From the NCBI GenBank assembly GCA_001799565.1, contig MGTS01000020.1:1104-65103 (forward strand): a stretch of DNA of 64,000 nucleotides, in the 5' to 3' direction. Of this stretch, positions 395-55,589 are shown one piece after another. The notes beneath the pieces are model-generated. The model saw only the letters and a program-made list of their open reading frames with translations, did not search any database and was not told where the DNA came from. The position numbers and the translations under genes are program-made. Within the stretch, counting starts at the first letter, position 1. Every line of letters starts with the position of its first letter. The stretch comes from Elusimicrobia bacterium GWA2_51_34 (GTDB lineage Bacteria > Elusimicrobiota > Elusimicrobia > Elusimicrobiales > UBA9959).

Positions 395-423
395 GGTTCT
401 ACTCATAACTATTGCGAGGTATT

Positions 424-858: not shown

Positions 859-868
859 CAGAAGTGGT

Positions 869-917: not shown

Positions 918-1004
918 TGGATACCGGAGTAAACCGGTAACCGCAGTTGAAGAGGGAGCGGACCCTCAAAAGGGCGCCGCGCTAAAACCTCAAAGGACAA
1001 TAAA

Positions 1005-1688: not shown

Positions 1689-1729
1689 AGCCAGGGGGAT
1701 ATGTAAATTTGCGTAACTGCTCAGATAGC

Positions 1730-1788
1730 CAGAATTCAGGAGTCAGGAGTCAGAAGTCGGAATTCTGAATTCTGACTCCTGATTTCTG
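1730..1788. repeat. Periodic-arm hairpin, CAGAATT/CAGGAGT type (rplA-hppA spacer)
   Basis: The units read CAGAATT CAGGAGT CAGGAGT CAGAAGT CGGAATT CTGAATT CTGACTC CTGATTT CTG, with a strict 7-nt period. The two halves are largely complementary, and the centre is GGAATTCTGA. Confidence 0.9.
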
Positions 1789-1825
1789 TTTACCGGAGTA
1801 ATAACATTTTGCGAAGGGGAATATA

Positions 1826-16405: not shown

Positions 16406-17566
16406 TCAGTTCCCACCTACTGCCAGCGGGGCGGTTTTTTCTTTGTCTATCCATTCGCCTGTGGAAATTTTGCTGTCGGTTCTGCGAAAGCTCCATTCAA
16501 CATAGTATTCATGCCCGGCCTCAGTGGCTTCTTTCTTGAATTCGTCCCATTTGGGGTCGGAAAGGTCCAGTAATATTTGCGGGGCGGCGCCAAGATTTAC
16601 GTCAATTTCATACACCAGCTTGTCGGGCCATAAGACTATATTCTTTAACACGCGCACACGTAATCCCAGTTTCTCTTTTATATAATACTTCGTGCGTGAA
16701 TCCCGCACATCCAATATCAGGTTTTTACCCCCGTCGGTCAGCGTCAGTGTTACCGCATCATCTTCAGGAGGCGTCAATTTAAGCTTCCGAAGTGCCGTAA
16801 CATCAAATACGGTTAAACGATTCCCGTCGGCGGTTGACCCGGCGGACGGGCGTATGTCATATTCGTAGCCGGTATCTTTGGGTTTCAGGGCCGCGGCGGC
16901 CGTGTTTCCGTAATGCAGCGCAAATAATTCTGGAGTTTCCCATGGAAGAATCGGGTAATCCGGGCGGTTGAGGAACCTTATTTTGGCGCTCTCCGGCACA
17001 TGGTTCCCGGTATATTGCTGGGAATCTATAAAGTAAAAAAGGCGGGTCCCGTCCCGTTTAGGTATGAAGAAAAAGTCCCTTTTGATATTATATTCGCGCG
17101 CTTTAAGATTGTACGTATATTCCAAGGGCGCTTCCTTTTTCCCCTGCGCGGCCTTGAAGGAGAGTTGTTCTATTGCAGGCTGCTGATAATTTATCTTGTC
17201 GCTGGGCTCGGACGAGCAGGTGGATTCGTCGGAGCGTACATAACGGAACCCGACATATGTATAAAGATCGGGGTCGGGGGAGGCGTTAAGTTTAACAGCG
17301 TCAGGCGGGCAACGCTTTATTTCCGCCTCTTTCCGCGCGATATTTCCCGGTTCCGCGTATAATTTAGCAATTTTGACCATTTGCGCGGCCGGAACCGCTG
17401 TCCCGCTTTTTGGGGACCGGGCGGCATCCAAAACATCTGAAAAATGAGCCCCTATAATTTCATCAAAGGACAATTTTTCCATATCCTGCCCCGTCGCCCC
17501 GCTTGTAGCTGGGGACGCCAGGAAGAAAACTACCGGCAAAAAAGCTGAGAATGTAGTGTGTTTCAT
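16406..17566 (-). CDS. Hypothetical secreted protein
   Basis: A 386-aa ORF with the signal-peptide-like 'MKHTTFSAFLPVVFFLASPATSGA'. Its start overlaps the upstream gene's stop by 4 nt. I recognise no family. Confidence 0.6.
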   Translation of the reverse strand: MKHTTFSAFLPVVFFLASPATSGATGQDMEKLSFDEIIGAHFSDVLDAARSPKSGTAVPAAQMVKIAKLYAEPGNIARKEAEIKRCPPDAVKLNASPDPDLYTYVGFRYVRSDESTCSSEPSDKINYQQPAIEQLSFKAAQGKKEAPLEYTYNLKAREYNIKRDFFFIPKRDGTRLFYFIDSQQYTGNHVPESAKIRFLNRPDYPILPWETPELFALHYGNTAAAALKPKDTGYEYDIRPSAGSTADGNRLTVFDVTALRKLKLTPPEDDAVTLTLTDGGKNLILDVRDSRTKYYIKEKLGLRVRVLKNIVLWPDKLVYEIDVNLGAAPQILLDLSDPKWDEFKKEATEAGHEYYVEWSFRRTDSKISTGEWIDKEKTAPLAVGGN

Positions 17567-18267
17567 TTTACATTGCCTCCATCAAAACGGTTGGAATTCG
17601 TCTGGTTAAATAACAGGTTTTTAATGATGCTCTCCGATGAGGAAACGCTTTTTGGAATGTCCGTTTCCATCAGTTTCTGCGTAATTGAATTTCTCATGGA
17701 TTTCATAGCCAGAGGATTGTTTGTCACCAATTCTTCGCCGTAAACCAGAGTAACCACCGCCACCGCTCCAAGAGGGTCCAGCGTAAAACCCGTGGCATCC
17801 ACCAGTTCGCAGGAAGAGTTAGGGTTCAAGGAGAACCCTTTTTCTTTTAATCTGGCCTCGGATATGCGCGCGACGGTGAACTTGGTTTCCGTGACTTTCT
17901 CGGAGGAAGCCGAGTCGGATCCCGACGTGGAGTCGGAATCGGACCCCGAGCCGGAGGTGCTGCAGGAGCCCGAACCGGAACAGGAGCAGGAGTCGCTGTA
18001 GTGGGCTCTTGCGTTACAGCTTGCGCGGACATCTGCCGCCGCGGAAACGAAAGCTTTGGTCTTCGCTATTCTGACTACGCTCACTACCCCGGTGTTGCCG
18101 GCGGCATCCTTCCCGCACTCAATTCTCTCAGCGCCCACCTGCTGGGTAAGGTCCAGTCGTGTAATGCGGTTCTCAAGGCTCGCGGACACGTCGGCGTCTA
18201 CGTTTACGTATGACCACGCGTTGCCGGTGAATAAAACCATCAAGCCGGTATAGAACAAATGTTTCAT
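17563..18267 (-). CDS. Hypothetical secreted protein with a Ser/Cys/Gly/Asp low-complexity tract
   Basis: It has the signal peptide 'MKHLFYTGLMVLFTGNAWS' and the tract 'SCSCSGSGSCSTSGSGSDSDSTSGSDSASS'. It appears translationally coupled to 16406-17566. Confidence 0.6.
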   Translation of the reverse strand: MKHLFYTGLMVLFTGNAWSYVNVDADVSASLENRITRLDLTQQVGAERIECGKDAAGNTGVVSVVRIAKTKAFVSAAADVRASCNARAHYSDSCSCSGSGSCSTSGSGSDSDSTSGSDSASSEKVTETKFTVARISEARLKEKGFSLNPNSSCELVDATGFTLDPLGAVAVVTLVYGEELVTNNPLAMKSMRNSITQKLMETDIPKSVSSSESIIKNLLFNQTNSNRFDGGNVK

Positions 18268-18546
18268 ACTTTTATCTCCTTTAAATTTATCAGGGCCGCT
18301 GGTATCCCAATATAGTCTAAGGGAAGAATCATGTTTTTCAAAGGGCCCTTAGCCCTGCCGCGCCGCGGGAATCCGGCCTGCATGAAAATAGGACTAAAGT
18401 CCCATGCGAATATTCCCTTGCATTCAACTTGGAAGCGCAACCAGCGGTCAAATCGCCTGAAACAGGGGTTGCGCAAAAAAACGATCCGGGCGCAGGTTGT
18501 AAAAACTCTGGCCCGGATTGTATAACGCCGTTTAATTATTTACAGG

Positions 18547-19818
18547 TTAATCTCCGCTGCCCGCCGCGTCGGGCAGCATGTTGGTTCGGGTAAGGTACGT
18601 GCCGTCGAAGATCCTGGTTTCCGTAGTGTACACGTTTCCGGAGTCGTCAACCCGCAGTGTCTGTCCCCAGCCCAGGTCAAGCCCGGATATGGGATTGTTA
18701 TTAGCGTGCACATGGCCGCCCTGCACCGTATAGAGGTTGCCGTGCGTGTCTACTGTGAAGTCGCTTACATTGCCGGTCGGCACGTTCTCTAACGGGTTGT
18801 ACCAACCGCTGCCGGCCAGCATTTTCCTGTTGCCGTTCGCGCCTTCCTCAAACACATTGCCTTTGAACTGCGTGAGTACCCTTCCGTCGGCGCTTACATT
18901 GAATTTATCCACACCGTACCTGGTTACTACCGTTTCTGTGTAGTATTCGGTATGCTCATCGCCGTCGCTGTCCGTCACGGTCCTTGAGCGCCATACCGTG
19001 TCCACATGCACTTCGGATGGCACGCGGGCGACCACCCGCGGCTTTTGGGTTGCCGGGTCCACCATCATTATGATATCTTCGGAATTTTTGGAGTACTGCG
19101 CGTACAACTTATCGTCCGCGCTGGCGCTGATCTTTATTAATGACGCATTGCTGAAGATGCTGTTACTGAACGTGGTTACATATTTGCCGTCGCGGTATAC
19201 TTTATTGGTCCAGCCTTCCTGGGTGTATAAATGGTCCTGCCCGTCCTGGCCTTTGACCACCTGCAGGTTGGAGGCGGCTTTGGTCTCTAAGACCGTTTTC
19301 CAGTCGCCCACGAATTCGCCTTTCTCGTTCCACATGTCGCCTTCCGTGTCGGGCGTGGCTTTCTGTATGGCGCGGTTGGAATCCCAGAATTTCCACCACG
19401 GAGACACTTTGGCAACGCGGTACATATTGCCGTCCGGAGAGACCACCAGGCCGTTGAGCCCTTTCTGCTTTACACCCGGTTTGTCGGACAGCAGGGACAG
19501 TAACGGAGGAGCTTTTGTCTTGGTCGCGGGGGGCTTAGCCTGTGTGGCCGCTTTAGCGGCCGGCTTGCCGGTCAAAGACATGCGCACTGCCGCGCCTTTG
19601 GCTACGCCGCCGCCGTTATGGTTGCCGTCGAAAATCCAGTCCTGCACTATTTTGTTGAATGTTGCGCCCTTATCAAGGGACAGTACTTCCACAGCATCAA
19701 TATCCGTCTTCATGGTGGCAGTGGAAACGGCTGTGGCGTTAGATCCGGCCACGAAAACTCCGGCCGCCACCATAAAACCGCACGTTCCCGAAGTGATGAT
19801 TTTCGCTATTTTTTTCAT
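18547..19818 (-). CDS. Hypothetical secreted repeat protein (possible beta-propeller)
   Basis: It has the signal peptide 'MKKIAKIITSGTCGFMVAAGVFVAG'. The 'D-G-x-hydrophobic-Y' blades recur (VSPDGNMYRV, VSADGRVLTQ, VDTHGNLYTV, VDDSGNVYTT). Confidence 0.6.
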   Translation of the reverse strand: MKKIAKIITSGTCGFMVAAGVFVAGSNATAVSTATMKTDIDAVEVLSLDKGATFNKIVQDWIFDGNHNGGGVAKGAAVRMSLTGKPAAKAATQAKPPATKTKAPPLLSLLSDKPGVKQKGLNGLVVSPDGNMYRVAKVSPWWKFWDSNRAIQKATPDTEGDMWNEKGEFVGDWKTVLETKAASNLQVVKGQDGQDHLYTQEGWTNKVYRDGKYVTTFSNSIFSNASLIKISASADDKLYAQYSKNSEDIIMMVDPATQKPRVVARVPSEVHVDTVWRSRTVTDSDGDEHTEYYTETVVTRYGVDKFNVSADGRVLTQFKGNVFEEGANGNRKMLAGSGWYNPLENVPTGNVSDFTVDTHGNLYTVQGGHVHANNNPISGLDLGWGQTLRVDDSGNVYTTETRIFDGTYLTRTNMLPDAAGSGD

Positions 19819-23369: not shown

Positions 23370-24644
23370 ATGGCCGAAAATGATGAGGGCAGGCAGGATG
23401 ACAACGCCAGCGGCCACCGGCACTCCGGAGGCAGAAAAAAAGCGCTTATAGTTTCTGTGCTGCTCTTCCTTCTTTTTGGCGGCGGGATTTTCCTGTTTTT
23501 CGTGATTCAGGGCGCCGACGATTTAAAAGATAATAAAACGCGGAATTTTTCCTACGGTTCCGAGGCCAGGGCCGGAGTGAGCGCTTTTATGAAGTATCTT
23601 AGTTTTACCTCGGATGAGGTCGAATTTTCGGAGGCCGCCCGGGGAAGAAACGCGGCAAGGAGGCTGGATTCTTCCGCGGCCGGCCCGACTGCGGATATTT
23701 CCGACTGGATGGATAAGGGCGGCGCGGGCACTGGTTCTTCCGGCGGTTCGGCCGCTCCCGGCTCAAGGGGCTTCGGCGTTTCCATTCCCAGAATGGCGGC
23801 GAAAGGCGCGGGCCTTGGTTCCGCCGGCGGCGCGGGCACTAAATCTTCAGCCGGGCTTTCCAGATTCGGTTCAGGCGGAGACTCCGGTAATGTTGCTGTT
23901 TCAAAAGCCGGCGATCTTGGCGCCAGGGGCCCTGGCTCTAAAAACGCCGCGCTTTCGTCATTGCGCAATTCTCAGGCCTACCTGGGCGACGCGCTTAAAA
24001 GTTCTTCCGCCATGGAGGCTAAGGCCAAATGGGGGCAAAGTTTCGGCATGGGTGATAAGGGGGGAGGGGAGGCGCTTGCCTATAGCAAGAGCAGTTTGGC
24101 TAAACTTGATGCCATAAAAAGCGGGGAAATAACCAACCTTAAAACCAATGATCTTAAATCCCTTAAAATACCAGATGTCGGCGCCCCTGAAAAAGTCAAA
24201 TCAAGCGAGGCAGAAAATGCCGCACTCGACAAAATGAAGGAGGACGCCAAGGCGGGATTGACTAATCCGATGTTCGGTTCCATGGCCGGCGCTTTAGGCG
24301 CGAATAAAGGCGGAACCGGCGCGGGTAGAAATTCCACCCCTCCGCCGGAGATCACGCAGCTTGGAAATCTTCCCAAACCTGAGGGGCAATACTGTCCAAC
24401 GGCGGAAGGATGCCGTTTGGTCCCTGACAATGGAAGCGTATTCAAGGACAATGCGCCTACCTTCCAGCAGAACCCTGCCGGCGGCTGGCAGGCCACTTAT
24501 GAGGGGCAGCAGACGGGCCCTGACGGCCGCGTTACATACTATAAGGATATCGTTCCTCTTAATCCGGGCGGTAATCCGCAGTTCGGTCCTCCTATCTCAT
24601 TTGAGGGGGCCAGTTCAAACGGCCTCATGCGGGTTGCACAGTAA
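23370..24644 (+). CDS. Cluster protein P1: N-terminally anchored Gly/Ser/Ala-rich low-complexity protein, unknown family
   Basis: 'MAENDEGRQDD..GGRKKALIVSVLLFLLFGGGIFLFFVIQG' gives a charged N-terminus followed by one TM. About 300 aa of G/S/A-rich sequence follows, then a roughly 90-aa C-terminal region with 2 Cys ('CPTAEGCRLVPDNG..'). The ATG at 23370 follows a G6 run. Confidence 0.7.
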   Translation: MAENDEGRQDDNASGHRHSGGRKKALIVSVLLFLLFGGGIFLFFVIQGADDLKDNKTRNFSYGSEARAGVSAFMKYLSFTSDEVEFSEAARGRNAARRLDSSAAGPTADISDWMDKGGAGTGSSGGSAAPGSRGFGVSIPRMAAKGAGLGSAGGAGTKSSAGLSRFGSGGDSGNVAVSKAGDLGARGPGSKNAALSSLRNSQAYLGDALKSSSAMEAKAKWGQSFGMGDKGGGEALAYSKSSLAKLDAIKSGEITNLKTNDLKSLKIPDVGAPEKVKSSEAENAALDKMKEDAKAGLTNPMFGSMAGALGANKGGTGAGRNSTPPPEITQLGNLPKPEGQYCPTAEGCRLVPDNGSVFKDNAPTFQQNPAGGWQATYEGQQTGPDGRVTYYKDIVPLNPGGNPQFGPPISFEGASSNGLMRVAQ

Positions 24645-31475: not shown

Positions 31476-34400
31476 ATGAAACTGAATGATAACGAAGAGA
31501 AAAAAGACGGGCTGCCGCCCATACTGAGCTCGTCTTTTAAAAAAACCGTCTCTTTCGGCAGGACGTCCGGTTTTTTGAAATCTACCGGCAATATCATGAA
31601 AAGGCTTAAAAATCTTTCCAAAAAAGACATGGCTTTTGTGGGTATAGGTCTGGGTGTTCTTGTTATGGCTCCGGTAGCGGAGTATATGATGTCGGGGCCC
31701 CCGGCTGATAATTTGCTTGCTCCGGGTTTCGGCGGAAGAGAGCAGGGCTCGGCCTCAGGGATTTTTGAACCGGGCATTAACGGGCTCAGCCAGGGTTCAG
31801 CGGATGGTTCCGGCGAGGTAATAACCCCTTTAAGCGCAAGGGATCCGCTGTCGCTCATACTTGGTTCACAGTCTTCAGCGCCGCCCATGCCCGCTGCCGC
31901 CGCGCCCAGGGTTGATTTACGCGACGCCATGAAAGACGCGGGCAGGTCCGCGTTTTCCGCGGCCGCGAAATCTGCAGGCGCGCCGACGCCGATCCCAAAA
32001 ATGCAGGGCGCCCTGCGCTCTGTGGGTTCTTTTTTCAGCGGCGGAGAGAGTTCTCGCAGCGCGGATAATCTCAGCGGCGATAAGATACTACAGGACGCCA
32101 GGAACGCCTCAGGCAAGTCAGCGGCCAGATCCATGCTCGGGCCGGTTGCCGCGGCGGGTTATAAAGGCGTGGCTTCCGCGCTGAACAGCTCCAGCAAAGA
32201 CGCTTTTGAGAAACTTCGCGCGAAGGCTGGCAGGTCAGCCGGCAATTTCAGCGGTGAAAGCGCCATAAGTTCGCTGGACAAGGCGGCCGCGGACGCGCTT
32301 AATGCGGGACAAGGGACGGGCGGCGCGGGCGCCGGCGGCAGCGGCGAAAAAACCAAGGACCCTTCAAATTCTACCAATAAAAATGAACACAGCTGGAACA
32401 AAGGGGAAAAGTCGCTGTCGGAGCTGGCGGCTGAAGCGAGACAGAAAGCCGCCCTTGACTGGGAATTCTATAAAAAATACGAGATTCCCAAACAGATAAT
32501 AACAGCCCTTATGGAGAATGTGGTCACCGGCGGACTGATAAAGCCCCTGGGCGATATGGTGAACGGAACCGTAAACAGCATGCTTGGAAATTATCCGCCG
32601 ACTCAATTCTGTTGGCAGCCGGCCGTATGTGATGACGGAGACTGCAGAGAAGCCGTAACAGAGAATAACGTGACCGCGCCTGTTGATCTCTGTGTTAAGT
32701 TCGGCGCAATCGGTTTTAAAATGGAAAAAGCCGGCAAGGAAAGTACTGGAAACTTTCAGGTAAAGAGGTGTATTTGCGGCGAAGGGAACGCGCCTACCAA
32801 TGGCGCGCCTTACATCCCGGGAGGCACAACCCCAGAAGACAGTCCTGACGCGACGCCGGGTAATGCCCAGCCGCAGGTTCCGGACGCCTTCGGTAAGGTG
32901 TTTGCGGATTATGACACCGTTTTGCAGGATATGGTAAATCAGACCGTGGCGGCCGAGTCCAACGCTTCTGATCCAGCCATGGTGGAAGCCAGCGCTAAAA
33001 GCGTGGCCGGCGGTTTTAAAAACATTAATATTAAAGTCAACGACGTGGTGTTTCCGTTGCTGAATTCCGCGAAGACCAAAGCCGGAGCGGATTTAGACGG
33101 GTATTCGGGCAGGGTGGGAGAGACGCAGGCAAAGTTCACCGCAACGCAGGTAAAATATCAGGCCTTCATTCCTCAGGTTGCCGCGTTGGAAAAAGATCTG
33201 GCGGAGAAGAAGTTGAAAATGAAGGTCCATGATGGTATGGAAGTGATTGCCGACGAGGGCACCCTGACAAGGGTGCGCGCGGCCATAGATCTATGGAAAG
33301 GGCAGGGCCCCGTATATTTAAATAACGCGGATGGGCTACTTGCTTCTCACCGGAAAAAAATGACTGATTACGCAAGTCAGCTCTCGCTTGTGGAAGGCGG
33401 GATTGATTCCATACGGAAAAAGCAGTCCGCCGCAAACGACGCGGCGGAGTCCATTATAAGCGGTGAAGACGGCTGGCCGCTTAAATTAAAAAAGATGACC
33501 GGCAGGGGGCAGGACGCTGTTAGCGCAGACAAGGGAACTGAAGCAGTCCCTCCCGTGAAACAGGTGGCAACCGGGCTGCGCGCCCTGGACTGGGACACGC
33601 TTTGGGCGGCGGAGCATAAGTTTGACAGCTCCAGAGTCGCGGCAGAAGAGAAACAGGCGTGGGGTGACTGGCAAAAAAAGATCACCGTGAGCCTGGGCCA
33701 GCCGGACAACTTTGTGTCCAATCTTCTACGCAGCGGTGAAATACAGCAGGCGATAGTGGGTGCACTGCCTGACTTTTCAAATGTAGAGGGCATGCTCTCG
33801 GATACCGAGACTTCTATGGGTAAGACTAAGCGGACGGTGACGGGTTCGGGAGTGGACTCCTGCTACTTCGCGGATGGCGGCTGCGGCGCGGTACCGGAGA
33901 ACCCGGCGAATCCGGTAAATCCTTCAAACCCGGTCAATCCGGACCCAAATACCGGGGGGGGGGCACAGGCCGGTCTTACAAGTTCAGCTAACGCTCTTTA
34001 CAGCACATACAGCGGCAAACTTTCCGCCGCGCAATCCGCTTATGCGAACTTGCCGCCCAAAAATATGATTGACCCTAAATCCCAGGCGGAGTATGGGCCA
34101 TTGCTGGCCCAGGCGGGGAAAAACATGGATGAACTGCGTGTAGCGGTAAAAGAGCTTGAAGGTATTAAGGCCGCCCTGGCTACACCTAACCTCCCGCCGG
34201 CAAAAGTAGCGGAGCTTAAGGCAAAGCTTGCCGCTGCCCAACCCAAGTTGGAAAAAGCGTCCACGGCTGTAGATGCGGGCGTAAAGGCGGCTGCTGACTT
34301 TGCCAGGCTGCACCCTTTATCTCCGGCGGGCGGCCTGACCCTGCAGGGCATTAAATCGGAAGGCACGAAAGCTTTCAATAAGATTATAACGGCCTATGGG

Positions 34401-35333
34401 CAAGGCAAACCCAAATGGGCCGCCTTCCCCTCAGGCAATAGTGTCAGCGCTTTGCGTGCGGCAGCCGAGAAAGAATGGAACAAGCTGCAGTCTTGTCTGG
34501 CCGCGGCCGAGCCATTGCATAACACAACGAATGCCGCCACGGAAAATACCCGCAAGGAAGCGCTGACGGCCCTGGAAACATTAAGGACGAAGGCTGAAGC
34601 CGCTGAACTGGCGCTGAAAAAATTGAATGATGCCTTTGAGGCTGCCGGTAAAATATCCGATAAATGCTGGGAGCGCGCCGAAGGCTGCCGCACGCTCAGC
34701 AACTTCTATATGCACAAGAACTGGAAGGTGCGTAAGCAGAAGCTTACCGCCGGATCAGCCTACGCCGAAGCCGACGGCGCTGAAGGGCAGGCTTGGGACT
34801 GGGCCTACGCGAACCGCCCCGGTGTTTATTCAAGCTGGGGACAGGATGACAGAGAGAGTGTCTGCAGGGATGCGTGGGCCAGTGTGCCCTGGTGGAGGTA
34901 TGCGCTTAACTTCCGCCTCAGCGCTGCTGTTGAGGATTGCAAGGCTAAATGGTTTATCCCCGTGTTCGGGATACAGCATCGTTCTGAACCGGTGGAAAGC
35001 AGAGGCGTCTTTACGTCATTTACGCTTGCAAGGACAGTGAACGGTAAGACCAGTAAGACATATGAAGGCGAGGCCCAGAAGAGTGAGTTCACCGGTAAGC
35101 TTAAAGTCCTTTGCGGCAGGTCCGACGGGGCCTGGAGGACCACGTCTGTTTCTTTCCTGGTGCACAAGCCTATTACTCAAACCTACCCCGAAGGAATCAG
35201 CATCAGCGCGGGGCAATCGTTCTTCAAAATGGGCTCTGCTGTGACCAATGGTGCGGGCACTACCGTGCATTTCGGAGAGTGGCAGGCGCTGACCAGAATG
35301 CACGGCGTGAACTGCGGAGGCGACGCGGATTAA
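31476..35333 (+). CDS. Cluster protein P6: 1285-aa N-terminally anchored giant protein, unknown family
   Basis: The ATG at 31476 follows GAGGGAGGG. It begins 'MKLNDNEEKKDGLPP', has the TM 'MAFVGIGLGVLVMAPVAEYMM' and a G/S/A-rich stretch. Cys clusters follow ('QFCWQPAVCDDGDCREA', 'KRCICGEG'), then a long Ala/Lys/Glu helical region and 'PENPANPVNPSNPVNPDPN'. The C-terminal domain is Trp/Cys-containing. A strong terminator follows at 35357-35391. Confidence 0.75.
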   Translation: MKLNDNEEKKDGLPPILSSSFKKTVSFGRTSGFLKSTGNIMKRLKNLSKKDMAFVGIGLGVLVMAPVAEYMMSGPPADNLLAPGFGGREQGSASGIFEPGINGLSQGSADGSGEVITPLSARDPLSLILGSQSSAPPMPAAAAPRVDLRDAMKDAGRSAFSAAAKSAGAPTPIPKMQGALRSVGSFFSGGESSRSADNLSGDKILQDARNASGKSAARSMLGPVAAAGYKGVASALNSSSKDAFEKLRAKAGRSAGNFSGESAISSLDKAAADALNAGQGTGGAGAGGSGEKTKDPSNSTNKNEHSWNKGEKSLSELAAEARQKAALDWEFYKKYEIPKQIITALMENVVTGGLIKPLGDMVNGTVNSMLGNYPPTQFCWQPAVCDDGDCREAVTENNVTAPVDLCVKFGAIGFKMEKAGKESTGNFQVKRCICGEGNAPTNGAPYIPGGTTPEDSPDATPGNAQPQVPDAFGKVFADYDTVLQDMVNQTVAAESNASDPAMVEASAKSVAGGFKNINIKVNDVVFPLLNSAKTKAGADLDGYSGRVGETQAKFTATQVKYQAFIPQVAALEKDLAEKKLKMKVHDGMEVIADEGTLTRVRAAIDLWKGQGPVYLNNADGLLASHRKKMTDYASQLSLVEGGIDSIRKKQSAANDAAESIISGEDGWPLKLKKMTGRGQDAVSADKGTEAVPPVKQVATGLRALDWDTLWAAEHKFDSSRVAAEEKQAWGDWQKKITVSLGQPDNFVSNLLRSGEIQQAIVGALPDFSNVEGMLSDTETSMGKTKRTVTGSGVDSCYFADGGCGAVPENPANPVNPSNPVNPDPNTGGGAQAGLTSSANALYSTYSGKLSAAQSAYANLPPKNMIDPKSQAEYGPLLAQAGKNMDELRVAVKELEGIKAALATPNLPPAKVAELKAKLAAAQPKLEKASTAVDAGVKAAADFARLHPLSPAGGLTLQGIKSEGTKAFNKIITAYGQGKPKWAAFPSGNSVSALRAAAEKEWNKLQSCLAAAEPLHNTTNAATENTRKEALTALETLRTKAEAAELALKKLNDAFEAAGKISDKCWERAEGCRTLSNFYMHKNWKVRKQKLTAGSAYAEADGAEGQAWDWAYANRPGVYSSWGQDDRESVCRDAWASVPWWRYALNFRLSAAVEDCKAKWFIPVFGIQHRSEPVESRGVFTSFTLARTVNGKTSKTYEGEAQKSEFTGKLKVLCGRSDGAWRTTSVSFLVHKPITQTYPEGISISAGQSFFKMGSAVTNGAGTTVHFGEWQALTRMHGVNCGGDAD

Positions 35334-35356: not shown

Positions 35357-35391
35357 AAAACCCCGTCCGCCTTAGGCGGACGGGGTTTTTT
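35357..35391 (+). terminator. Rho-independent terminator after the giant gene P6
   Basis: AAAACCCCGTCCGCC-TTA-GGCGGACGGGGTTTTTT forms an 11-bp GC-rich stem (15 bp with the A/T extension) followed by T6. Confidence 0.85.
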
Positions 35392-35516
35392 GTGTTATTG
35401 CCGGGGCCGGAAAATCGTATAATGTAAATGAGATTGGATAAACAGCCACAAGACACAAGCGGGAGTTCCTGCGGCTGAATGTCGTTTCGCAAAGCACATG
35501 CGCGTAGGGGAGAAAA

Positions 35517-36368
35517 ATGAAAAAAATAATATTAGCGGCGGTTGCATGTACGGTTTTAGGTCTTAACGCGGCGGCCTATTTCAGCGGGGGGGCTAGTTCT
35601 GTTTCCGGCCCCGATGGTTATCACGGAACGAACCTTAATCTGGTTATAGGCTCCGGCAACCTGGCCATAGAGCCCTCGCTGGCCGCCTATACCTGGGACA
35701 CGCTGGACGATACATTTCACACATATACGCTTCGCGGAGCCTGGGAAGCGGAAAAGTACACCGTGGCCGGACTGGTCGGTTCCACCCCTGAAGTCAACGG
35801 CTATTCCAATAAGTTTTTCGGCGGCGATATAACTGTTTCTCTTACTCCCGGAGAAGGCGGGAAGTCCCGTCTTACCGGCCCCGGTTCGCGCGGCGGCGCG
35901 CGCGGTGGACAGGGCGTAACCCGCATTGATGTTGGCGCTGGCCTTAAGCAAACCATGCATACTCAGGCCGTTGGGACAACCGATAATGAAACCTCCCAGA
36001 CCGAAGGCTCGCTGTTTGCCGGGGCTAAAATACTGATGGTGAACCTTTCCGCCTCTTATACCGGTTATAAGTATGGCGACGAAGACGCGGCTCCGCTGGG
36101 TTTTGTTCCCGGTCTTAGCTTCGCCTTCGGGGCTTTTCCCAAGTCCAGTGTCAACGTGAAATTGGACCTGCCCGGTTTCCCCATGGTGACTCCGTTCGTT
36201 TCATACACCGGCACCAAGTATAAGGGAGGCCGTGACGACAGTTCCGCTTACCTGTTCGGCGCTTACCTTGACTTGAGTATGGTAACGGCAAATGTCGGCT
36301 ACCAGATGTTTGACAACGGTTCCACTAAGGACAATTACCTGTCGGTCGGAGCGGGAATAAAGTTCTAG
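35517..36368 (+). CDS. Putative outer-membrane beta-barrel protein (P7)
   Basis: It has the signal peptide 'MKKIILAAVACTVLGLNAAA', alternating-hydrophobicity strands rich in Gly/Tyr/Thr, and the C-terminal 'YLSVGAGIKF' (terminal Phe, an OMP beta-signal). Confidence 0.6.
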   Translation: MKKIILAAVACTVLGLNAAAYFSGGASSVSGPDGYHGTNLNLVIGSGNLAIEPSLAAYTWDTLDDTFHTYTLRGAWEAEKYTVAGLVGSTPEVNGYSNKFFGGDITVSLTPGEGGKSRLTGPGSRGGARGGQGVTRIDVGAGLKQTMHTQAVGTTDNETSQTEGSLFAGAKILMVNLSASYTGYKYGDEDAAPLGFVPGLSFAFGAFPKSSVNVKLDLPGFPMVTPFVSYTGTKYKGGRDDSSAYLFGAYLDLSMVTANVGYQMFDNGSTKDNYLSVGAGIKF

Positions 36369-45546: not shown

Positions 45547-48219
45547 ATGAAATACTGGTTCTATTCCGAAGGCAATATTCTTGGCCCCTACGCCCCCGGC
45601 GAACTGCTTACTCTGCCGGCTTTCGCGCAGGACAGCCTTGTTTGCCTTGAAACTTCCACCGGAGATAAACCGGATGACTGGAAGCCGGCTTCCCAAGCGG
45701 AGGAAATAGAGGAAGCTTTAAGTGTGGGAGCCGGTAAATCAATTTCTTCAGGCTATGGCGGCATTGGGGATCTTTACGCGCTTGAAACCGGTTTTTCACA
45801 AGTGTCAACACCCGTCTATGAAAGCGCCTTTGAACAGGGCTATGCCTGTGAAAATCTGCTGGGCACAATAGACGATATTCTTAAGACCGGGGACGGCGGT
45901 TCTGCCGGCGAGCCTGAGATATCGGCCTATTCCGCTTCAGGTGGCCTGTCCGCAACTGAGTGGAAAAGTTCTTTTGACTATGACCAGATGGATAAATTTG
46001 ATGTTCCTCTCTCAAAAATACAGGAGGATCTGGAATTGGCCCGCTGGGAAAAAGACCTTTTGCAGGAAAAAGTAAGACTGAAGGACCTGGAGGACAGGAA
46101 ACAGCGTGATCGTATAGAGGAATTGGAAGTCAGGCTGAAGACGGTGCTGGACCAGGGCGGCGCCATGGAAAAAGAATTTGAGCAGTTGCGCCAATCCTCA
46201 GGAGGTTCCGTCCCAGAGGCCGCTGGCCCACAAAACGGCCGTCTGGAGGATTTAACGGAACAGGCCGAAACCGTAAGAAAGACGGAAGAAATTAACAAAG
46301 ATAATTCAGCTGAACTCTCGTGCGCTTCTTCGGCCGGGCCGAAAAATACGATTAACGAAAAAGACATTAGAGTTTTAAAGAACCTGAGGGTTTCCGATGA
46401 GGTAAAACTTGAAAGGCTTGGTGACAGCGATGACGCCGCGCAAGCTGGAAATAGCATTACCAGCCGCAGGCTGAAAAGCCTGGGCGGAAGCGCTAAAAGC
46501 CAGGAAGGCCCCGGCTTATTGGCGGAGGATGAGGCGACATCCAGCCAAACCGGGGGAGGGGCGCCCAGTATTGAACCGCCGCCGCTTGCAACTCCGGAGC
46601 CAAAGCCTGAGACATTGTCCGCATTAAACGGCGGAGCCCTTTCCGTGGATTTGCCGCAGGGGGACGCCGCACAGCGGCCTCCCTTGCTGCCGGCCACTAC
46701 CGGTAATTTGGAGTCTTTGCCTAAGTCGGACGGGGTGATTCAGGACTTTACAGCTGAAACTCCAAAAAGCGAAGAGCCTTTTAAAAAGACGCAGATCAAT
46801 TCAGGGTTGCCTGGCCATGGCGGATTTCCTGATCATGCAGGTTCCGTTTCCCAATCCTTTGGAGGTGCCGTCCCAGAGGCCTTTGGCCCACAAAACGGCC
46901 AATCCTTTGGAGGTGCCGTCCCAGAGGCCGCTGGCCCACAAAACGGCCAATCCTTTGGAGGAGGGGAAACCGCATTTGCGGTGTCCCCTCAGTCGCGGAC
47001 GACGCCAGGCCGGATGACAGCGCCGGAGGCCACCGGCACGCCAGAGTCAGAGGCCCGCGACAGGTCAGAGCCACAGCCGGTGGGAAAGGGTGTCCCAGAG
47101 GCCTCAGCCGCGGAGGCTATTCAGGATCAGGCACAAAAAGCGCCTGACTCCACCCCTGTCAAACAGCAGCCGGTTTCCGTTCCGGATAAAATGGCGCGCA
47201 TAACAATATCCGGCAATGGGCTGAAAACGGAGGTTGAATCCCAGGTCAAACCGGCCAGAAAAGGCGGAAGACTGGCATTTATCGCTATCATCATAATTTT
47301 TGGCGCCATAGCTGCGGGAGGGCTTGGTTTCTTCTTTCTTGGCGATGGCCTCAGCTTTTCAGAATTTTCAATGCTTGATTTCAATTCTTTAAAACGCGCC
47401 CAAAAAAGCATCATGCCTTCTCAGCTTGAACCGCAGGTTAGCGATAAAAACGCTGGCCAATCCACCGAAGTTGCCGTCGCGGGGGCCTCAGATGCGGACA
47501 GCGCCAGTGTCCCGCAACAGGTCAGCGTCTCCGGTCAGCAAAACGGTCTGCCGGCAGCGGAGAACGCGGTAAAAAGCGTTCCTGAAAACCAGTCCGGAGG
47601 GGCTCAAAGCCCTGCCACAGCTGCGGAGCAGTCGCCTGAAAAAACTTCCGCGCCGCTTGCCGTAAATGAGGGAGTTAAAACCGCGATTGAGACAGTTAAA
47701 AACTACAAATTATCCGGAGGCAGGGGCGCTATCGGCGGCTGGTTTGCCAATTCTTTTCTTTCTGGTTCTTCCGGCGCCGCGTCCGAAGAGTGGTCGGCAA
47801 CTCCGCTTCACGGAGATATTCTTGTTGTGCAGTATCGCCTGATAAGGCAAAAGCAGGACCCGCTTATTTATCAATTTGAAGTGGACGGCGCAAAAAACGA
47901 CATAATCCGCGGTATCAACAATAATGCCATAGAACTGCTGGATTTCTCCTCCGGAAAAACAGAACAGTCCGCGGTTTACGCTCCTAAACCGGAAGGTCGG
48001 GTAAGAAAAATATCGGCAAAAAAACTTTCCGCCAAAGCTAAACTGGTGAGAAAGCCAGGCAAGTCTAAAGGAGTCCCTTTACTCCCGCTGCCGGACGCGC
48101 CGGCGGCTGGCCTTAACAACGAAGATGAGGATTCAGCCGGTTTTGAAGATGCTCAATCGGATAACGGGGAAAAGGTGGAATACATAAAAGCTCAGGAATC
48201 CGACGAGGAGTTGTTCTAG
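45547..48219 (+). CDS. GYF_2 (DUF4339)-domain protein with coiled coil, internal repeats, one TM and a C-terminal domain
   Basis: The N-terminus 'MKYWFYSEGNILGPYAPGELLTLPAF' is GYF_2-like. It also has a coiled-coil 'LQEKVRLKDLEDRKQRDRIEELEVRLK', 'SFGGAVPEA(F/A)GPQNGQ' repeats and the TM 'LAFIAIIIIFGAIAAGGLGFFFLG'. It lies directly upstream of pilB. Confidence 0.65.
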   Translation: MKYWFYSEGNILGPYAPGELLTLPAFAQDSLVCLETSTGDKPDDWKPASQAEEIEEALSVGAGKSISSGYGGIGDLYALETGFSQVSTPVYESAFEQGYACENLLGTIDDILKTGDGGSAGEPEISAYSASGGLSATEWKSSFDYDQMDKFDVPLSKIQEDLELARWEKDLLQEKVRLKDLEDRKQRDRIEELEVRLKTVLDQGGAMEKEFEQLRQSSGGSVPEAAGPQNGRLEDLTEQAETVRKTEEINKDNSAELSCASSAGPKNTINEKDIRVLKNLRVSDEVKLERLGDSDDAAQAGNSITSRRLKSLGGSAKSQEGPGLLAEDEATSSQTGGGAPSIEPPPLATPEPKPETLSALNGGALSVDLPQGDAAQRPPLLPATTGNLESLPKSDGVIQDFTAETPKSEEPFKKTQINSGLPGHGGFPDHAGSVSQSFGGAVPEAFGPQNGQSFGGAVPEAAGPQNGQSFGGGETAFAVSPQSRTTPGRMTAPEATGTPESEARDRSEPQPVGKGVPEASAAEAIQDQAQKAPDSTPVKQQPVSVPDKMARITISGNGLKTEVESQVKPARKGGRLAFIAIIIIFGAIAAGGLGFFFLGDGLSFSEFSMLDFNSLKRAQKSIMPSQLEPQVSDKNAGQSTEVAVAGASDADSASVPQQVSVSGQQNGLPAAENAVKSVPENQSGGAQSPATAAEQSPEKTSAPLAVNEGVKTAIETVKNYKLSGGRGAIGGWFANSFLSGSSGAASEEWSATPLHGDILVVQYRLIRQKQDPLIYQFEVDGAKNDIIRGINNNAIELLDFSSGKTEQSAVYAPKPEGRVRKISAKKLSAKAKLVRKPGKSKGVPLLPLPDAPAAGLNNEDEDSAGFEDAQSDNGEKVEYIKAQESDEELF
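46853..46962 (+). repeat. 48-nt tandem repeat (2.3 copies) inside the GYF-domain gene, with dispersed copies at 46201-46250 and about 47085-47110
   Basis: The unit is AATCCTTTGGAGGTGCCGTCCCAGAGGCC(TTT/GCT)GGCCCACAAAACGGCC. It contains the small palindromes CCAGAGGCCTTTGG and TTGGCC..GGCCAA. The CAAAACGGCC module also occurs in noncoding 31005-31016. Confidence 0.9.
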
Positions 48220-53983: not shown

Positions 53984-54020
53984 TCTATTGAAATCGCAAC
54001 TTGACAGGGGGAGTGCTCAA

Positions 54021-55472
54021 ATGACAAAGATAATTATTTTCATACTGCTTATCGCTCCGGCATTTACGACGGCAGCTCCCACTGCCAAAAATAAGGCCGA
54101 TATTTACCAGACAATCGCGGGGGAACTCCTGAAAGACTGCACAGGTGCGGGTAAAGCGGTAGCCGTGGCCGGCTTTTCCTATTCCGACGGCCGGGATTCC
54201 CGTGACGGCGGCGTAGTAGCCGAAAGAATAACCACCGAACTGGTAAAATCAAAAAAATTCAAGGTAATTGAAAGAAAAGAAATAGAAAAAGTTTTTGAAG
54301 AATTAAAACTCCAAAGGTCCGGCGCCATAAACCCCGATTCCGCCAAAGAAATAGGCCAAATGCTAGGCGCCGACTGGGTAGTAGTAGGAACCCTAACCGA
54401 ACTCCCCGACAAACAATTAGAACTAAACACCCGCCTGGTATCAGTAGAATCCGGAGAAATAATAAACGCCGCCAAGACCCAAATAAAAAAAGACTGGCTG
54501 GACCAATACAAGAAACTCCTTGAAGAGCAAAACAAAGTTATTAAGAAAAACTCAAAGGACGCACAAGCATTTTACGAGAGGGGCACAATGTATGCTGATT
54601 TGGGGCAATATGATAATGCGATAGGAAGCTTCGGCATAGCGATTAGTATTGATCCGACCCATCTGATGGCTTATTTCGGTAGAGGAAATGTTTATTATGC
54701 AAAGAGGGATTTTGATAAAGTGATAGAAGATTTTTCCAAAGCTATAGCAATTGATCCGAAGTTTACTGGCGCGTATTACGAGCGTGGATTGGCATATAAC
54801 GAGAAGGGTGAGTATAACAAGGGAATAGAAGATTTTTTAAGGGTAATATTGGATGTTCCGAAGAATGCGGGGGCCCATAGTGCTCTTGGGAGTATCTATG
54901 CTAGTAAAAGAGAGTATGATAAGGCAATTAAAGAACATTCCGTGGCGTTAGAAATTGATCCAAAGGATGCGGGGGAATATTCCAATCGTGGGGGTGCTTA
55001 TGTGCAGAATGGTGAGCTTGATAAGGGCATTGAAGATTTTTCTAAGGCAATAGAGATTGACCCAAGAGAAGCGACAATATATACGAACCGAGGGATTGCG
55101 TATTCACAGAAGAGGGAATGGGCCGAAGCAATAGAAGACTTTTCTATGGCCATCTTAATCAACCCAAAGGATGCGTATTCGTATGCGTTCCGGGGCCATA
55201 TGTATCAAGGCAAAGGCGAATGCTCCAAAGCATTAGATGACGTTAACAAGGCCATAGCAATTAATCCCAATCTGGCTGAAGCATACATGTATCGTGGAAG
55301 AAATAGTTTATGTGGAAAAGGTGTCGGGAGCATACTTGAACGAGCGGAAGTTGTTAAGGCAATAGAGGATTTTAACACAGCAGTAAAATTAGATTCGAAG
55401 CTCTATACAGAGTTACAAGCTTTAGTTGATGCACTAAAGTGGCCAGGTTTATCCAAACCAACATCAAAGTGA
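54021..55472 (+). CDS. Secreted/lipoprotein-like TPR repeat protein with an N-terminal FlgO/CsgG/LpoB-like domain
   Basis: It has the signal peptide 'MTKIIIFILLIAPAFTTAAP' and 'VAVAGFSYSDGRDS..VIERKEIEKVFEELKLQRSG..IGQMLGADWVVVGTL', typical of the CsgG/FlgO-type small domain. About 9 TPR units follow ('AYYERGLAYNEKGEYNKGIEDF'...). Confidence 0.7.
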   Translation: MTKIIIFILLIAPAFTTAAPTAKNKADIYQTIAGELLKDCTGAGKAVAVAGFSYSDGRDSRDGGVVAERITTELVKSKKFKVIERKEIEKVFEELKLQRSGAINPDSAKEIGQMLGADWVVVGTLTELPDKQLELNTRLVSVESGEIINAAKTQIKKDWLDQYKKLLEEQNKVIKKNSKDAQAFYERGTMYADLGQYDNAIGSFGIAISIDPTHLMAYFGRGNVYYAKRDFDKVIEDFSKAIAIDPKFTGAYYERGLAYNEKGEYNKGIEDFLRVILDVPKNAGAHSALGSIYASKREYDKAIKEHSVALEIDPKDAGEYSNRGGAYVQNGELDKGIEDFSKAIEIDPREATIYTNRGIAYSQKREWAEAIEDFSMAILINPKDAYSYAFRGHMYQGKGECSKALDDVNKAIAINPNLAEAYMYRGRNSLCGKGVGSILERAEVVKAIEDFNTAVKLDSKLYTELQALVDALKWPGLSKPTSK

Positions 55473-55589
55473 AATTTTCTGCCCTCTCCTGAAACTTAGT
55501 CGGTTTGGAAAAGGTAATAATAATCAGTCTTTTTTTACTAACGATAGAGTATAAATTAAAAATTGTTGATCCTGACTCACGGGGAGTAA

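Follow-up and report, generated by a model that had tools for sequence, protein, structure and literature searches.

A predicted membrane-anchored protein of Elusimicrobia couples a conserved N-terminal module to C-terminal regions apparently exchanged between lineages

In the 64,000-nucleotide window that we analyzed (one contiguous stretch of Elusimicrobia bacterium GWA2_51_34), the longest open reading frame, here called gene F, encodes a protein whose C-terminal two-thirds appear, from sequence comparisons, to be swapped between lineages by recombination. This mosaicism is a new result and the main feature of the protein, beyond the view of the first-pass annotation, which had described an anchored stalk presenting a folded distal domain. 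Probably, F is one component, variable and facing outward, of an undescribed apparatus of the cell envelope.

Gene F lies on the forward strand, ends at 35333, and opens at TTG 31461 (1,290 aa) or ATG 31476 (1,285 aa); the runner-up in the window has 890 aa. ATG 31476 is likely the start, because a Shine-Dalgarno-like sequence stands upstream and homologues start at the equivalent Met; the TTG taken by the ORF lister falls inside that stretch. F was confirmed as a real and intact frame, the largest in the window, and all the strings that had been quoted from it were located. Frameshifts or stops in orthologues had been proposed as a sign of decay; F is intact in 56 of the fetched loci (including L001 and L003), each encoding at least 780 aa, so the gene is not decaying. 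Its surroundings are as follows.

23370..24644, forward strand: gene A, bitopic membrane protein, first of the cluster; no known domain; conserved start MAENDE... (the ORF lister starts at 23205)
24834..25862, forward strand: gene B, distantly related to C; bitopic membrane protein whose conserved region is G/S/A-rich
25928..27463, forward strand: gene C, paralogous to D, with an N-terminal transmembrane (TM) segment, a conserved G/S/A-rich region, and TM helices clustered at the C terminus
27539..29023, forward strand: gene D, paralogue of C (hhalign)
29205..30731, forward strand: gene E, domain with six invariant Cys and one near-invariant (conservation), flanked by TM segments at both termini
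30732..31475, forward strand: E-F intergenic region, unusually long (744 nt in the window; median of 57 loci, 329 nt)
31463..31471, forward strand: Shine-Dalgarno-like GAGGGAGGG, 5 nt 5' of ATG 31476 (sequence read)
31476..35333, stop codon included, forward strand: gene F, 1,285-aa protein (ORF list, homologues); family unannotated
35357..35399, forward strand: strong intrinsic-terminator-like hairpin, 24 nt past the F stop codon (15-bp stem with 10 G-C pairs, T tail)
35517..36368, forward strand: gene G, 283 aa, signal peptide, C-terminal ...GAGIKF; putatively outer-membrane beta-barrel-like

Genes A-B-C-D-E-F are collinear wherever the contig permits, with F always last, and G follows in most loci, either directly or beyond an insertion, a gene of about 350 aa that encodes deoxyhypusine synthase in L001 and L002. 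Database searches with the seven proteins A to G returned no known domain and no homologue of known function, and G, which may be an outer-membrane beta-barrel by its features, had no match in Pfam or PDB. The E-F intergenic region contains blocks conserved in the nearest relatives (e.g., about 31298-31389 of the window); a conserved sigma-54 motif was looked for there and not found, and an Rfam search gave no match. By hhalign, C is related to D (E 6e-39) and B to C (E 4e-10). The N-terminal layout that F was said to share with the smaller cluster members holds as architecture but not as detectable homology, the comparison of the F N terminus with C, D, and E being not significant.

Relatives of F numbered 109 by word search and 332 representative clusters by profile search; GTDB species genomes contributed 60 loci. 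All relatives that carry a taxon name belong to Elusimicrobia and, as far as such names go, the family is restricted to that group. All family sequences are metagenome assemblies (MAGs or metagenome contigs), and the same alleles recur across independent sources (NCBI, JGI, ENA, and Logan). One locus was recovered per genome, barring assemblies that split the gene over contigs, and the context was in every case a chromosomal housekeeping neighborhood. Searches of F against Pfam, NCBIfam, PHROGs, PADLOC, PDB sequences, and Foldseek (PDB and BFVD) gave no match.

The protein can be divided into the following segments.

31476..31628, forward strand: residues 1-51, Lys-rich conserved cytoplasmic tail (conservation map, charge count); consensus MNFYNEDEKK..FKKTSAFGK..IMDRLKNLSRKD
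31629..31691, forward strand: residues 52-72, sole TM helix (hydropathy, AlphaFold2 helix 49-73, invariant columns), with MAFVGIGLGVLVMAPVAEYMM at residue 52
31692..32414, forward strand: residues 73-313, G/S/A-rich, predicted mostly disordered, very highly conserved (alignment columns, pLDDT)
32415..32591, forward strand: residues 314-372, conserved long helix (KALEWEFFKKYEIPKQII...; conservation, AlphaFold2)
32592..32882, forward strand: residues 373-469, Cys cluster (C379, C385, C390, C406, C432, C434), then Pro-rich linker; QFCWQPAVCDDGDCREA at residue 377, LCVKFG at 405, KRCICGEG at 430
32883..33893, forward strand: residues 470-806, elongated helical bundle (AlphaFold2 pLDDT 95-98)
33894..33962, forward strand: residues 807-829, PxNP repeat linker with PENPANPVNPSNPVNPDPNTGGG at residue 807; second module boundary (P0003/P0005 breakpoint near residue 800)
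33963..34649, forward strand: residues 830-1058, Ala/Leu/Lys-rich second stalk segment, probably helical (composition)
34650..35330, forward strand: residues 1059-1285, Trp-rich alpha/beta tip domain (alignment of six sequences, AlphaFold2), with CWERAEGCRTLSNFYMHKNW at residue 1064 and HGVNCGGDAD at 1276

Hydropathy detects only one hydrophobic span, at residues 50-73, and at the outer end of the helix P66 is invariant, with V67, A68, and E69 nearly so. The tail before it counts 12 K+R against 5 D+E, and all 15 Cys of F lie C-terminal of the TM segment. Among F relatives, the number of Cys after residue 370 is even in 70%, and 59% carry a Cys within the last 12 residues, versus 14% expected. 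The positive-inside charge, Cys only after the TM segment, invariant tip Cys, and even Cys counts suggest a single-TM, N-in topology with most of the protein extracytoplasmic, in keeping with the N-terminal anchor originally proposed.

Residues 73-313 have alignment columns 80-99% identical across 110 sequences and include the motifs YEPGINxLSxGSPDGSGEVITPLSxRDPxSLILG, KSAGAPTxIP, RSMVGPVAxAGYKGVA, AFEKLR, and SLDKAAA; AlphaFold2 gives them short helices and pLDDT mainly below 50. Confidence is mainly low over residues 75-470 as a whole, including the Cys segment, and becomes very high for a bundle of long helices at 470-800 (pLDDT 95-98), including helices 500-576 and 594-662 (77 and 69 residues) and shorter ones. 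A rigid, elongated helical element is thus supported, although not as the single continuous stalk of about 700 aa first envisaged. The separately folded distal domain is likewise supported, as an alpha/beta fold, by a model of moderate quality built from six sequences (pLDDT 68.9, pTM 0.58). A fold search with the tip found no match. Foldseek, which had been suggested as a check, gave no significant match to the predicted structures; the weak neighbors of the bundle included trypanosome surface proteins (the haptoglobin-haemoglobin receptor and VSG) and the V domain of ALIX, which resemble it as antiparallel helical bundles of about 10 nm, but these non-significant matches (E of at least 0.03, query-normalized TM-score below 0.2) reflect generic long helices.

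Conservation falls steeply along F. No component of the cluster is better conserved than residues 1-370 (median identity by bin, 0.91, 0.68, 0.57, and 0.47), and residues 1-372 are about as conserved as DnaX, RecR, and ComEC; least conserved of all is the remainder of F (0.27, 0.09, 0.08, and 0.04). Among 207 family members, segment 373-469 was detected in 47 (iterative HMM), 470-806 in 111, 830-1058 in 56, and the Trp/Cys-rich tip in 7. The bundle has near-invariant D480, R702, E725, W729, and R752. The tip (11 Trp and 6 Cys in the final 227 aa) is not a conserved functional head but the most dispensable part, and the conservation maps place the constrained part of F in the G/S/A-rich N-terminal third. 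Within the tip, all six Cys (1064, 1071, 1130, 1155, 1213, and 1280) are invariant in the six-sequence alignment; C379 and C434 are at least 90% conserved across the family. In metagenomes this tip was found only in the 3'-terminal part of F genes, with G downstream. Tips of F are polymorphic, and this one is a rare allele.

Between near-identical F proteins, identity of 95-100% gives way suddenly to about 15%, the switch lying near residues 350-450 or near residue 800. P0191 and P0192 share about 98% identity over 450 aa and then 12-20%; P0003 and P0005 share 86-100% over 800 aa and then about 14-22%. Only 12% of pairs with 80-90% N-terminal identity have alignable tips, and the converse also occurs (P0096 and P0099, 75% identical at the N terminus and 98% at the C terminus). 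Among 110 F proteins there are many unrelated tip classes, at least 12 of them multi-member, plus about 20 singletons. At the DNA level, L011 and L010 are 92.7% identical across D, E, and the first ~1,200 nt of F; the remainder of F shows no detected similarity, and 92.9% identity resumes 28 nt past the F stop codon and continues through G. Across DNA comparisons, breakpoints fall at aa about 368-401 (helix 314-372, the end of the conserved module, is the most frequent recombination breakpoint), and only the 3' two-thirds of the gene are replaced, with identity of about 92% on either side. Co-variation with the swap was sought in the rest of the cluster and none was found, nor were orphan cassettes found within 10 kb of F.

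Our preferred reading, to which we give a probability of about 0.4, is that F is anchored in the inner membrane, docks through its conserved N-terminal module into an envelope complex specific to the lineage, and displays a stalk and tip that can be swapped. F would thus be an N-in/C-out envelope protein with two evolutionary parts. The first, residues 1-370, would comprise the Lys-rich tail, the TM helix, the probably disordered, motif-studded G/S/A region, and the conserved helix, and may dock F into a complex with A to E, all membrane proteins, and probably G; for residues 73-313, where AlphaFold2 confidence is low, it is conservation that suggests this role. The second, from about 370 to the end, would be an extracytoplasmic, disulfide-stabilized ectodomain ordered as Cys loop, helical-bundle stalk, PxNP linker, second helical segment, and alpha/beta tip; the longest helices of the stalk (69-77 residues) would reach roughly 10-11 nm. 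Homologous recombination would carry this part between lineages, using as anchors the conserved 5' third of F and the conserved DNA downstream. The Campylobacter fetus SapA family and the Clostridioides difficile SlpA cassette likewise join a conserved anchor at a sharp boundary to divergent, recombination-exchanged alleles. After secretion these S-layer proteins attach to LPS or to the cell wall, whereas F has a predicted inner-membrane TM anchor, no SLH or CWB2 domain, and no silent cassettes alongside.

Alternatively, F could have a structural role in the periplasm, as a spacer or tether that follows the logic of TolA or of OmpM/OmpA tethers and links an inner-membrane complex to peptidoglycan or to the outer membrane, possibly to G, with a distal sequence that matters little and so drifts and recombines freely. 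We consider this unlikely. The single N-terminal TM, the Ala/Lys/Glu-rich helical middle, and the distal globular domain do recall the periplasm-spanning TolA and TonB, F is constantly adjacent to an outer-membrane-barrel-like gene, its N-terminal module is conserved at housekeeping level, and a mid-domain fold with five near-invariant residues is common to at least 111 of 207 members. However, F matches no TolA, TonB, or OmpA profile (the sole weak TolA match in the cluster, the EEAARRAE repeat of gene D, is well under cut-off), has no TolQ/R- or ExbB/D-like neighbors, is 3-4 times longer than TolA or TonB, and is polymorphic where their distal part is conserved. Moreover, the replacement of whole modules between ~92% flanks and the 98% C termini on 75% N termini suggest that specific alleles have been transferred and kept, not that sequences have drifted; invariance of the six Cys and of many aromatics within a tip class suggests purifying selection on tips as folded domains; and G does not co-vary with the tip.

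Quite improbable, in our view, is a polymorphic toxin or bacteriocin-like effector, with an N-terminal trafficking module serving a new export apparatus (A to E and G), a stalk or receptor-binding hairpin, and a swappable toxin C terminus. Its layout would resemble that of colicins: ColE9 has an intrinsically unstructured translocation domain with linear epitopes, a T domain, a long coiled-coil R domain, and a variable C-terminal cytotoxic domain plus immunity protein (PMC8561637), and F similarly runs from a Gly/Ser-rich, probably disordered, motif-bearing N terminus through a long antiparallel helical hairpin to a swappable tip. Conserved N termini with polymorphic C-terminal modules exchanged by recombination are also typical of CdiA-CT, Rhs-CT, and MafB (Zhang et al. 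2012, PMC3482391), and the sharp junctions, the many tip classes, and the pairs with higher C- than N-terminal identity all fit. Unlike these systems, F has a conserved cytoplasmic tail with a TM anchor that looks uncleaved, lies at a single chromosomal locus within a conserved membrane-protein cluster, and varies over about two-thirds of its length, stalk included. Comparison with colicins gave no significant match in sequence or fold, and F has no lysis gene and no TPS, RHS, PAAR, LXG, or MafB-N trafficking domain. No toxin (nuclease, pore, or other), pre-toxin, or trafficking Pfam domain and no adhesin family was found in F, in nine relatives from different classes taken at full length, or in 54 segments of 450 aa from C termini. 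Next to F there is no immunity gene that is swapped with it, because F is followed by the conserved G, either directly or after the ~350-aa insert; the swapped DNA stops at or near the F stop codon without an additional gene. The failure to find a toxin domain and an immunity gene, together with the lack of nearby orphan cassettes, weakens the toxin reading. An artefact, whether a spurious or decaying ORF or chimeric assemblies, is hardly credible even though every relative is metagenomic, given the intact ORFs, the strong Shine-Dalgarno and terminator, the confident bundle prediction, the identical alleles in four sources, and mosaic partners that each have continuous flanks. Some pairs (L028/L037 and L038/L035) are collinear throughout, and chimeric assembly could reshuffle existing variable sequences but not generate them.

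The original suggestion of an adhesin or effector on an extended stalk therefore stands as regards the anchor, helical element, and distal domain, and finds no counterpart in known adhesin or toxin families, a comparison that had itself been proposed. The C-terminal swapping suggests that outward-facing recognition or adhesion fits F better than a fixed enzymatic effector. Two considerations temper this: relaxed constraint plus recombination could imitate diversifying selection, and an inner-membrane anchor is hard to reconcile with surface exposure in a diderm, which needs a route across the outer membrane. Under the docking-module reading, the variable part of F would touch something that itself varies or exerts selection, perhaps an external ligand, a surface, or a neighboring cell, or else a phage or bacteriocin with F as its receptor, and its role may thus be one of recognition or evasion.

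Gene F, whose 1,285-aa product is the protein under study, is the longest ORF of the window and runs on the plus strand from 31461 (TTG) or 31476 (ATG) to 35333. The first-pass annotation had taken 31476-35333 to be the largest ORF, which was borne out, and the ORF is intact; the strings that it quoted from the protein were all found, at residues 52, 377, 405, 430, 807, 1064, and 1276. The ATG at 31476 agrees with the start of all homologs, with GAGGGAGGG lying 5' of it at 31463-31471, and a strong terminator-like hairpin is found 3' of the gene at about 35357-35389. The protein has one hydrophobic span (residues 50 to 73), an N-terminal tail of net positive charge (12 K+R versus 5 D+E), and 15 Cys, all of them C-terminal to the transmembrane (TM) segment; 11 Trp and 6 Cys fall in its last 227 residues. 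F is an intact single-pass membrane protein, the bulk of which bears conserved Cys patterns. We also considered a type IV pilin or pseudopilin and rejected it: the sequence before the TM segment reads ..NLSKKDMAFVGIGLG.., with no Gly at -1 and no Glu at +5, the prepilin-peptidase site (G followed by F/M-T-L-I/L-E) is absent before the hydrophobic helix, and there was no pilin match in Pfam.

Elusimicrobia is the only taxon name that members of the F family bear. A word-indexed search returned 109 homologs of 800 to 1,400 aa, and all of those with a name are "hypothetical protein" entries of Elusimicrobia MAGs. A profile of residues 1 to 372, compared with 1.84 billion representatives, matched 332 clusters (266 with an E value of <1e-30), and for the ten distant matches looked up, Elusimicrobia was the sole taxon name given. 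Scanning GTDB species genomes with two peptide patterns yielded 60 F loci, a figure that is thus no estimate of prevalence; these carry Elusimicrobia titles, save for a few labeled only "bacterium." The scan was based on a 7-sequence alignment, as a 19-sequence alignment held no conserved 7- to 10-mer. Each genome has one F locus, except where the assembly splits the gene across contigs, and all data on the family come from metagenome assemblies.

F itself matched nothing in Pfam, NCBIfam, PHROGs, PADLOC, or PDB sequences. Pfam gave only subthreshold compositional matches for F, 9 full-length relatives, and 54 C-terminal segments of 450 aa, and PDB sequence searches with F alone or with an F profile gave nothing or weak coiled-coil matches. 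Neither the N-terminal module nor the Trp/Cys-rich C-terminal domain (residues 1059 to 1285, here called the tip) was found by a scan of viral contigs; a phage or defense-system protein was rejected on this ground and for want of a PHROGs or PADLOC match. Literature searches turned up no relevant account of an envelope cluster in Elusimicrobia.

F sits in a conserved cluster of seven membrane-protein genes, laid out in the window as follows.

Genes of the cluster
23370-24644, same strand as F: gene A, collinear series
24834-25862, same strand as F: gene B, collinear series
25928-27463, same strand as F: gene C, collinear series
27539-29023, same strand as F: gene D, collinear series
29205-30731, same strand as F: gene E, collinear series
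31476-35333, plus strand: gene F, final member of the collinear series A-B-C-D-E-F
35517-36368: gene G, 283 aa, with a signal peptide and the C-terminal end ...GAGIKF

In each locus with sufficient upstream DNA, A to F are collinear and on the same strand, with F last. A to E are all membrane proteins, and G, because of its signal peptide and terminal GAGIKF, looks like an outer-membrane barrel. G lies directly 3' of F or is separated from it by an inserted gene of about 350 aa. The insertion is present in about half of the loci (L001, L007, L009, L013, L016 to L018, L020, L034, L035, L038, and others); elsewhere, including the window, G adjoins F. In L001 and L002, the two loci for which an identity is given, the inserted gene encodes deoxyhypusine synthase (PF01916). 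The order B to F is kept even in a very distant locus, L003, despite different flanks. In L003 (positions 1-4175), which is the most distant locus of all, the cluster comes after a response regulator and a short FtsH-like AAA/M41 protease (558 aa) and is itself followed by a TPR protein, whereas the window has a murC-like...dnaX context.

The Gly/Ser/Ala-rich "low-complexity" regions of A to E hold strongly conserved motifs. SSLDMFK is common to C and D, LK(N/G)NDPSL to B and C, and a Lys-rich N-terminal motif (D/E-x-KK-x-G) to C, D, and F. By hhalign, C and D are paralogs and B is distantly related to C; F was considered as a further paralog of these smaller members, but no relation was detectable by this method. 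Searches of A to E and G against Pfam and PDB sequences, including profiles or per-member scans, gave no match: PDB searches with profiles of G, C/D, and E returned nothing or weak coiled-coil matches, and per-member Pfam scans of G and C/D returned nothing consistent. Since F also lacks a database match, the whole cluster is without an annotated relative. With Pfam, NCBIfam, PHROGs, and PADLOC, the neighbors of F gave only compositional matches, to the EEAARRAE repeat of D. This short tandem repeat (27940-28060, residues about 136 to 176) encodes EEAARRAEEEAARRAE and accounts for the weak subthreshold TolA, eIF3, and PHROG matches of D, as well as for paired hairpin-like matches on the minus strand.

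The spacer between E and F (30732-31475) is unusually long, at 744 nt in the window (median of 329 nt in 57 loci), compared with about 50 to 180 nt between other cluster genes. Blocks of it at about 31063-31168 and about 31298-31389 are 75 to 85% identical in the closest relatives; the spacer may serve as a promoter or 5'-UTR element. No Rfam match was found in the spacer, and a sigma-54 promoter was dropped from consideration, its motif being present in only 2 of 58 loci and not conserved.

The DNA around the cluster is ordinary chromosome, which in the window also encodes ribosomal protein L1, IF3, PheRS, a MurC-like ligase, a flavodiiron protein, DnaX, RecR, ComEC, NAD kinase, RecN, GltX, PilB/T/C, UvrC, and MurJ; no Rfam family or tRNA was found anywhere in it. 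Several other stretches stand out. Three consecutive minus-strand ORFs (386, 234, and 423 aa) at 16406-19818 have no Pfam match, and an 890-aa ORF without a Pfam domain (45547-48219) immediately precedes the type IV pilus genes pilB (48434), pilT (50319), and pilC (51499). The stretch 54001-56000, with a G+C content of 0.41 versus about 0.52 elsewhere, may be acquired DNA; it covers a TPR protein with a CsgG/LpoB-like N-terminal domain (53988-55472) and a 179-aa ORF without a domain (55590-56129).

F consists of a hyperconserved N-terminal third and a recombining remainder. Many columns of residues 1 to 345, the Gly/Ser/Ala-rich part included, are 80 to 99% identical among 110 sequences, and conservation collapses beyond about residue 375. 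Invariant motifs of the N-terminal module include TPLSxRDPxSLI, GPVAxAGYKG, and EWEFFKKY. Across the 33 loci with a complete cluster, residues 1 to 370 are the most conserved component of A to G, with median identities of 0.91, 0.68, 0.57, and 0.47 by divergence bin, and the remainder of F is the least conserved by far (0.27, 0.09, 0.08, and 0.04). In a comparison against the window, residues 1 to 372 are about as conserved as DnaX, RecR, or ComEC; residues 807 to 1285 are undetectable even in the window's closest relative.

Sliding identity showed the change along F to be abrupt rather than gradual. Two homologs (P0191 and P0192) are about 98% identical over 450 residues and 12 to 20% identical thereafter, another pair (P0003 and P0005) drops from 86 to 100% over 800 residues to about 14 to 22%, and in two more (P0020/P0024 and P0032/P0074) the break falls near residue 350. 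Only 12% of pairs with 80 to 90% N-terminal identity have alignable C termini. In some pairs the C terminus is far more similar than the N terminus (98% versus 75% in P0096/P0099), which indicates lateral exchange. At the DNA level, loci L011 and L010 are 92.7% identical through D, E, and the first ~1,200 nt of F, have no detected similarity over the remaining ~1,650 nt, and resume at 92.9% identity 28 nt past the F stop and on through G. L029/L057 and L039/L057 have the same pattern; L028/L037 and L038/L035 are collinear throughout. Replacement is thus confined to the 3' two-thirds of F and proceeds by recombination anchored in the conserved flanks. The exchanged DNA extends as far as the F stop, with no other gene in it, and no orphan or silent cassettes were found within 10 kb of F.

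Iterative HMM searches resolved the variable part into modules of unequal reach.

Modules of F, with the number of family members in which each was detected
Residues 372-470: Cys loop, 47 of 207
Residues 470-800: mid-domain, 111 of 207
Residues 830-1058: helical segment, 56 of 207
Residues 1059-1285: Trp/Cys tip, 7 of 207

Five residues of the mid-domain (D480, R702, E725, W729, and R752) are near-invariant. Among 110 proteins, the C-terminal 200 residues sort into at least 12 multimember classes and about 20 singletons. As for whether Cys spacing would be conserved in homologs, a point raised at first pass, six Cys (1064, 1071, 1130, 1155, 1213, and 1280) are invariant within the window's tip class, which also has many invariant aromatic residues. 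Family-wide, a Cys falls among the 12 C-terminal residues of 59% of members (14% expected), and 70% have an even Cys count after residue 370, a pattern that fits a disulfide-bonded, extracytoplasmic fold. Outside the F family, word-index searches for the tip returned just the window's own fragment (P0110), and in metagenomes it was found at three loci, all of them the 3' end of an F gene upstream of G; these searches, being word- and pattern-based, have limited sensitivity.

AlphaFold2, run on residues 1 to 806 with 109 sequences, placed a TM helix at 49 to 73. The helical stalk described at first pass held for residues 470 to 800 (pLDDT of 95 to 98), with helices at 500 to 576 and 594 to 662 and shorter ones, which would make an elongated bundle of roughly 10 to 11 nm, as estimated from helix length. 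Residues 75 to 470, Cys cluster included, were mostly of low confidence, with short helices. The tip (residues 1040 to 1285, six sequences) gave a moderate alpha/beta model (pLDDT of 68.9, pTM of 0.58). Foldseek found no significant neighbor for either model in the PDB or for the 1-806 model in BFVD; the best matches were generic long-helix proteins and weak NTF2/cystatin-like rolls, with none below an E value of 0.03 for the 1-806 model against the PDB.

We infer that the N-terminal module of F (cytoplasmic tail, TM segment, and motif-rich region) docks into a complex with A to E and possibly G. The variable stalk and tip would face a partner encoded outside the cluster, because nothing in the cluster covaries with the swap. 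A partner of this sort is what adhesion or recognition molecules typically have, as do receptors under phage or bacteriocin pressure. Our leading interpretation, to which we assign a probability of about 40%, is that docked F presents its stalk and tip for adhesion or recognition, or as such a receptor. It is possible, if somewhat doubtful, that A to G form an Elusimicrobia-specific trans-envelope machine not described before, with F as its exchangeable outward-directed specificity subunit. In this machine, five or six inner-membrane proteins, whose disordered periplasmic regions bear conserved motifs, would be accompanied by an outer-membrane barrel; F would be anchored via its near-invariant N-terminal module and bear recombining stalk-and-tip cassettes.

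Alternatively, F could be a TolA-like spacer under relaxed constraint, which accounts for its anchor and helices. This is unlikely, as it leaves unexplained why folded alleles with internal conservation are retained and transferred. F matches the single N-terminal TM segment and long helical region of TolA in architecture only: TolA has its own profiles and a conserved C-terminal domain III, whereas F has no profile match and a polymorphic C terminus, and in place of TolQ/TolR-type (MotA_ExbB/ExbD) partners, F has neighbors (A to E and G) without Pfam domains.

A toxin or bacteriocin is a more improbable identity still. The junctions of F resemble those of polymorphic toxins, and a conserved N-terminal part, a sharp boundary, and polymorphic C-terminal modules, by which such toxins are recognized, are all found in F. 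However, no toxin domain was found in the 64 sequences tested; in Pfam, the C-terminal module matched no recognized toxin domain family, and the tip has no Foldseek match. Trafficking or pretoxin domains (TPS, RHS, PAAR, LXG, MafB-N, HINT, and so on) are absent from F by Pfam and NCBIfam, and there is no immunity gene: where polymorphic toxin systems have a covarying one downstream, F is followed by G or by the ~350-aa gene and G. The F string GSPDGSGEV may resemble, over about four residues in a Gly/Ser-rich context, the TolB-binding epitope of ColE9, which we regard as no more than a lead. The order of parts in F also resembles the T-R-C domain order of colicins (PMC8561637), by analogy only. 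No similarity of F to colicin T or R domains was found, its profile giving only weak coiled-coil matches in the PDB and Foldseek no match there below an E value of 0.03. Moreover, colicin-like bacteriocins are soluble and released, with plasmid- or island-borne immunity and lysis genes, whereas F has a TM anchor, is not a free protein, and lies in a conserved chromosomal operon where neither gene was found. That F is an artefact or a decaying gene can be excluded for practical purposes.

The adhesin or effector proposed at first pass gained no family to belong to, as neither F nor its relatives matched an adhesin or toxin family in Pfam; known adhesins (autotransporters, RTX, Ig-like or cadherin repeats, FilH, etc.) were among those without a match. 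S-layer proteins carry an anchoring domain (SLH, CWB2, etc.), and Pfam found none in F. S-layer proteins, pilins, colicins, and polymorphic toxins are likewise known to combine a conserved anchor with swappable exposed modules, and despite this shared evolutionary logic, F overall fails assignment to any of these families.

Elusimicrobia are a widespread, almost uncultured phylum, and to our knowledge nothing is known of how their envelope interacts with the outside. The analysis defines a cluster of seven genes, none with a known domain, that proved conserved wherever examination was possible. One of its proteins joins near-housekeeping conservation of one third to cassette-like replacement of the remainder. 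F is also evidence that a bacterial region rich in Gly, Ser, and Ala and predicted to be disordered can match replication proteins in conservation, which implies dense partner binding. If A to G do form a machine, it would be an apparatus of a new kind, for contact, recognition, or delivery, with a target range reprogrammed through cassette exchange. Molecules at an interface of conflict or recognition (phage receptors, adhesins, kin-recognition proteins, S-layers, and bacteriocins, for example) are marked by an evolutionary signature of the F type. F thus offers a concrete starting point for experimental work on Elusimicrobium minutum or Endomicrobium, for typing strains in metagenomes, and for finding what may be a new envelope apparatus.
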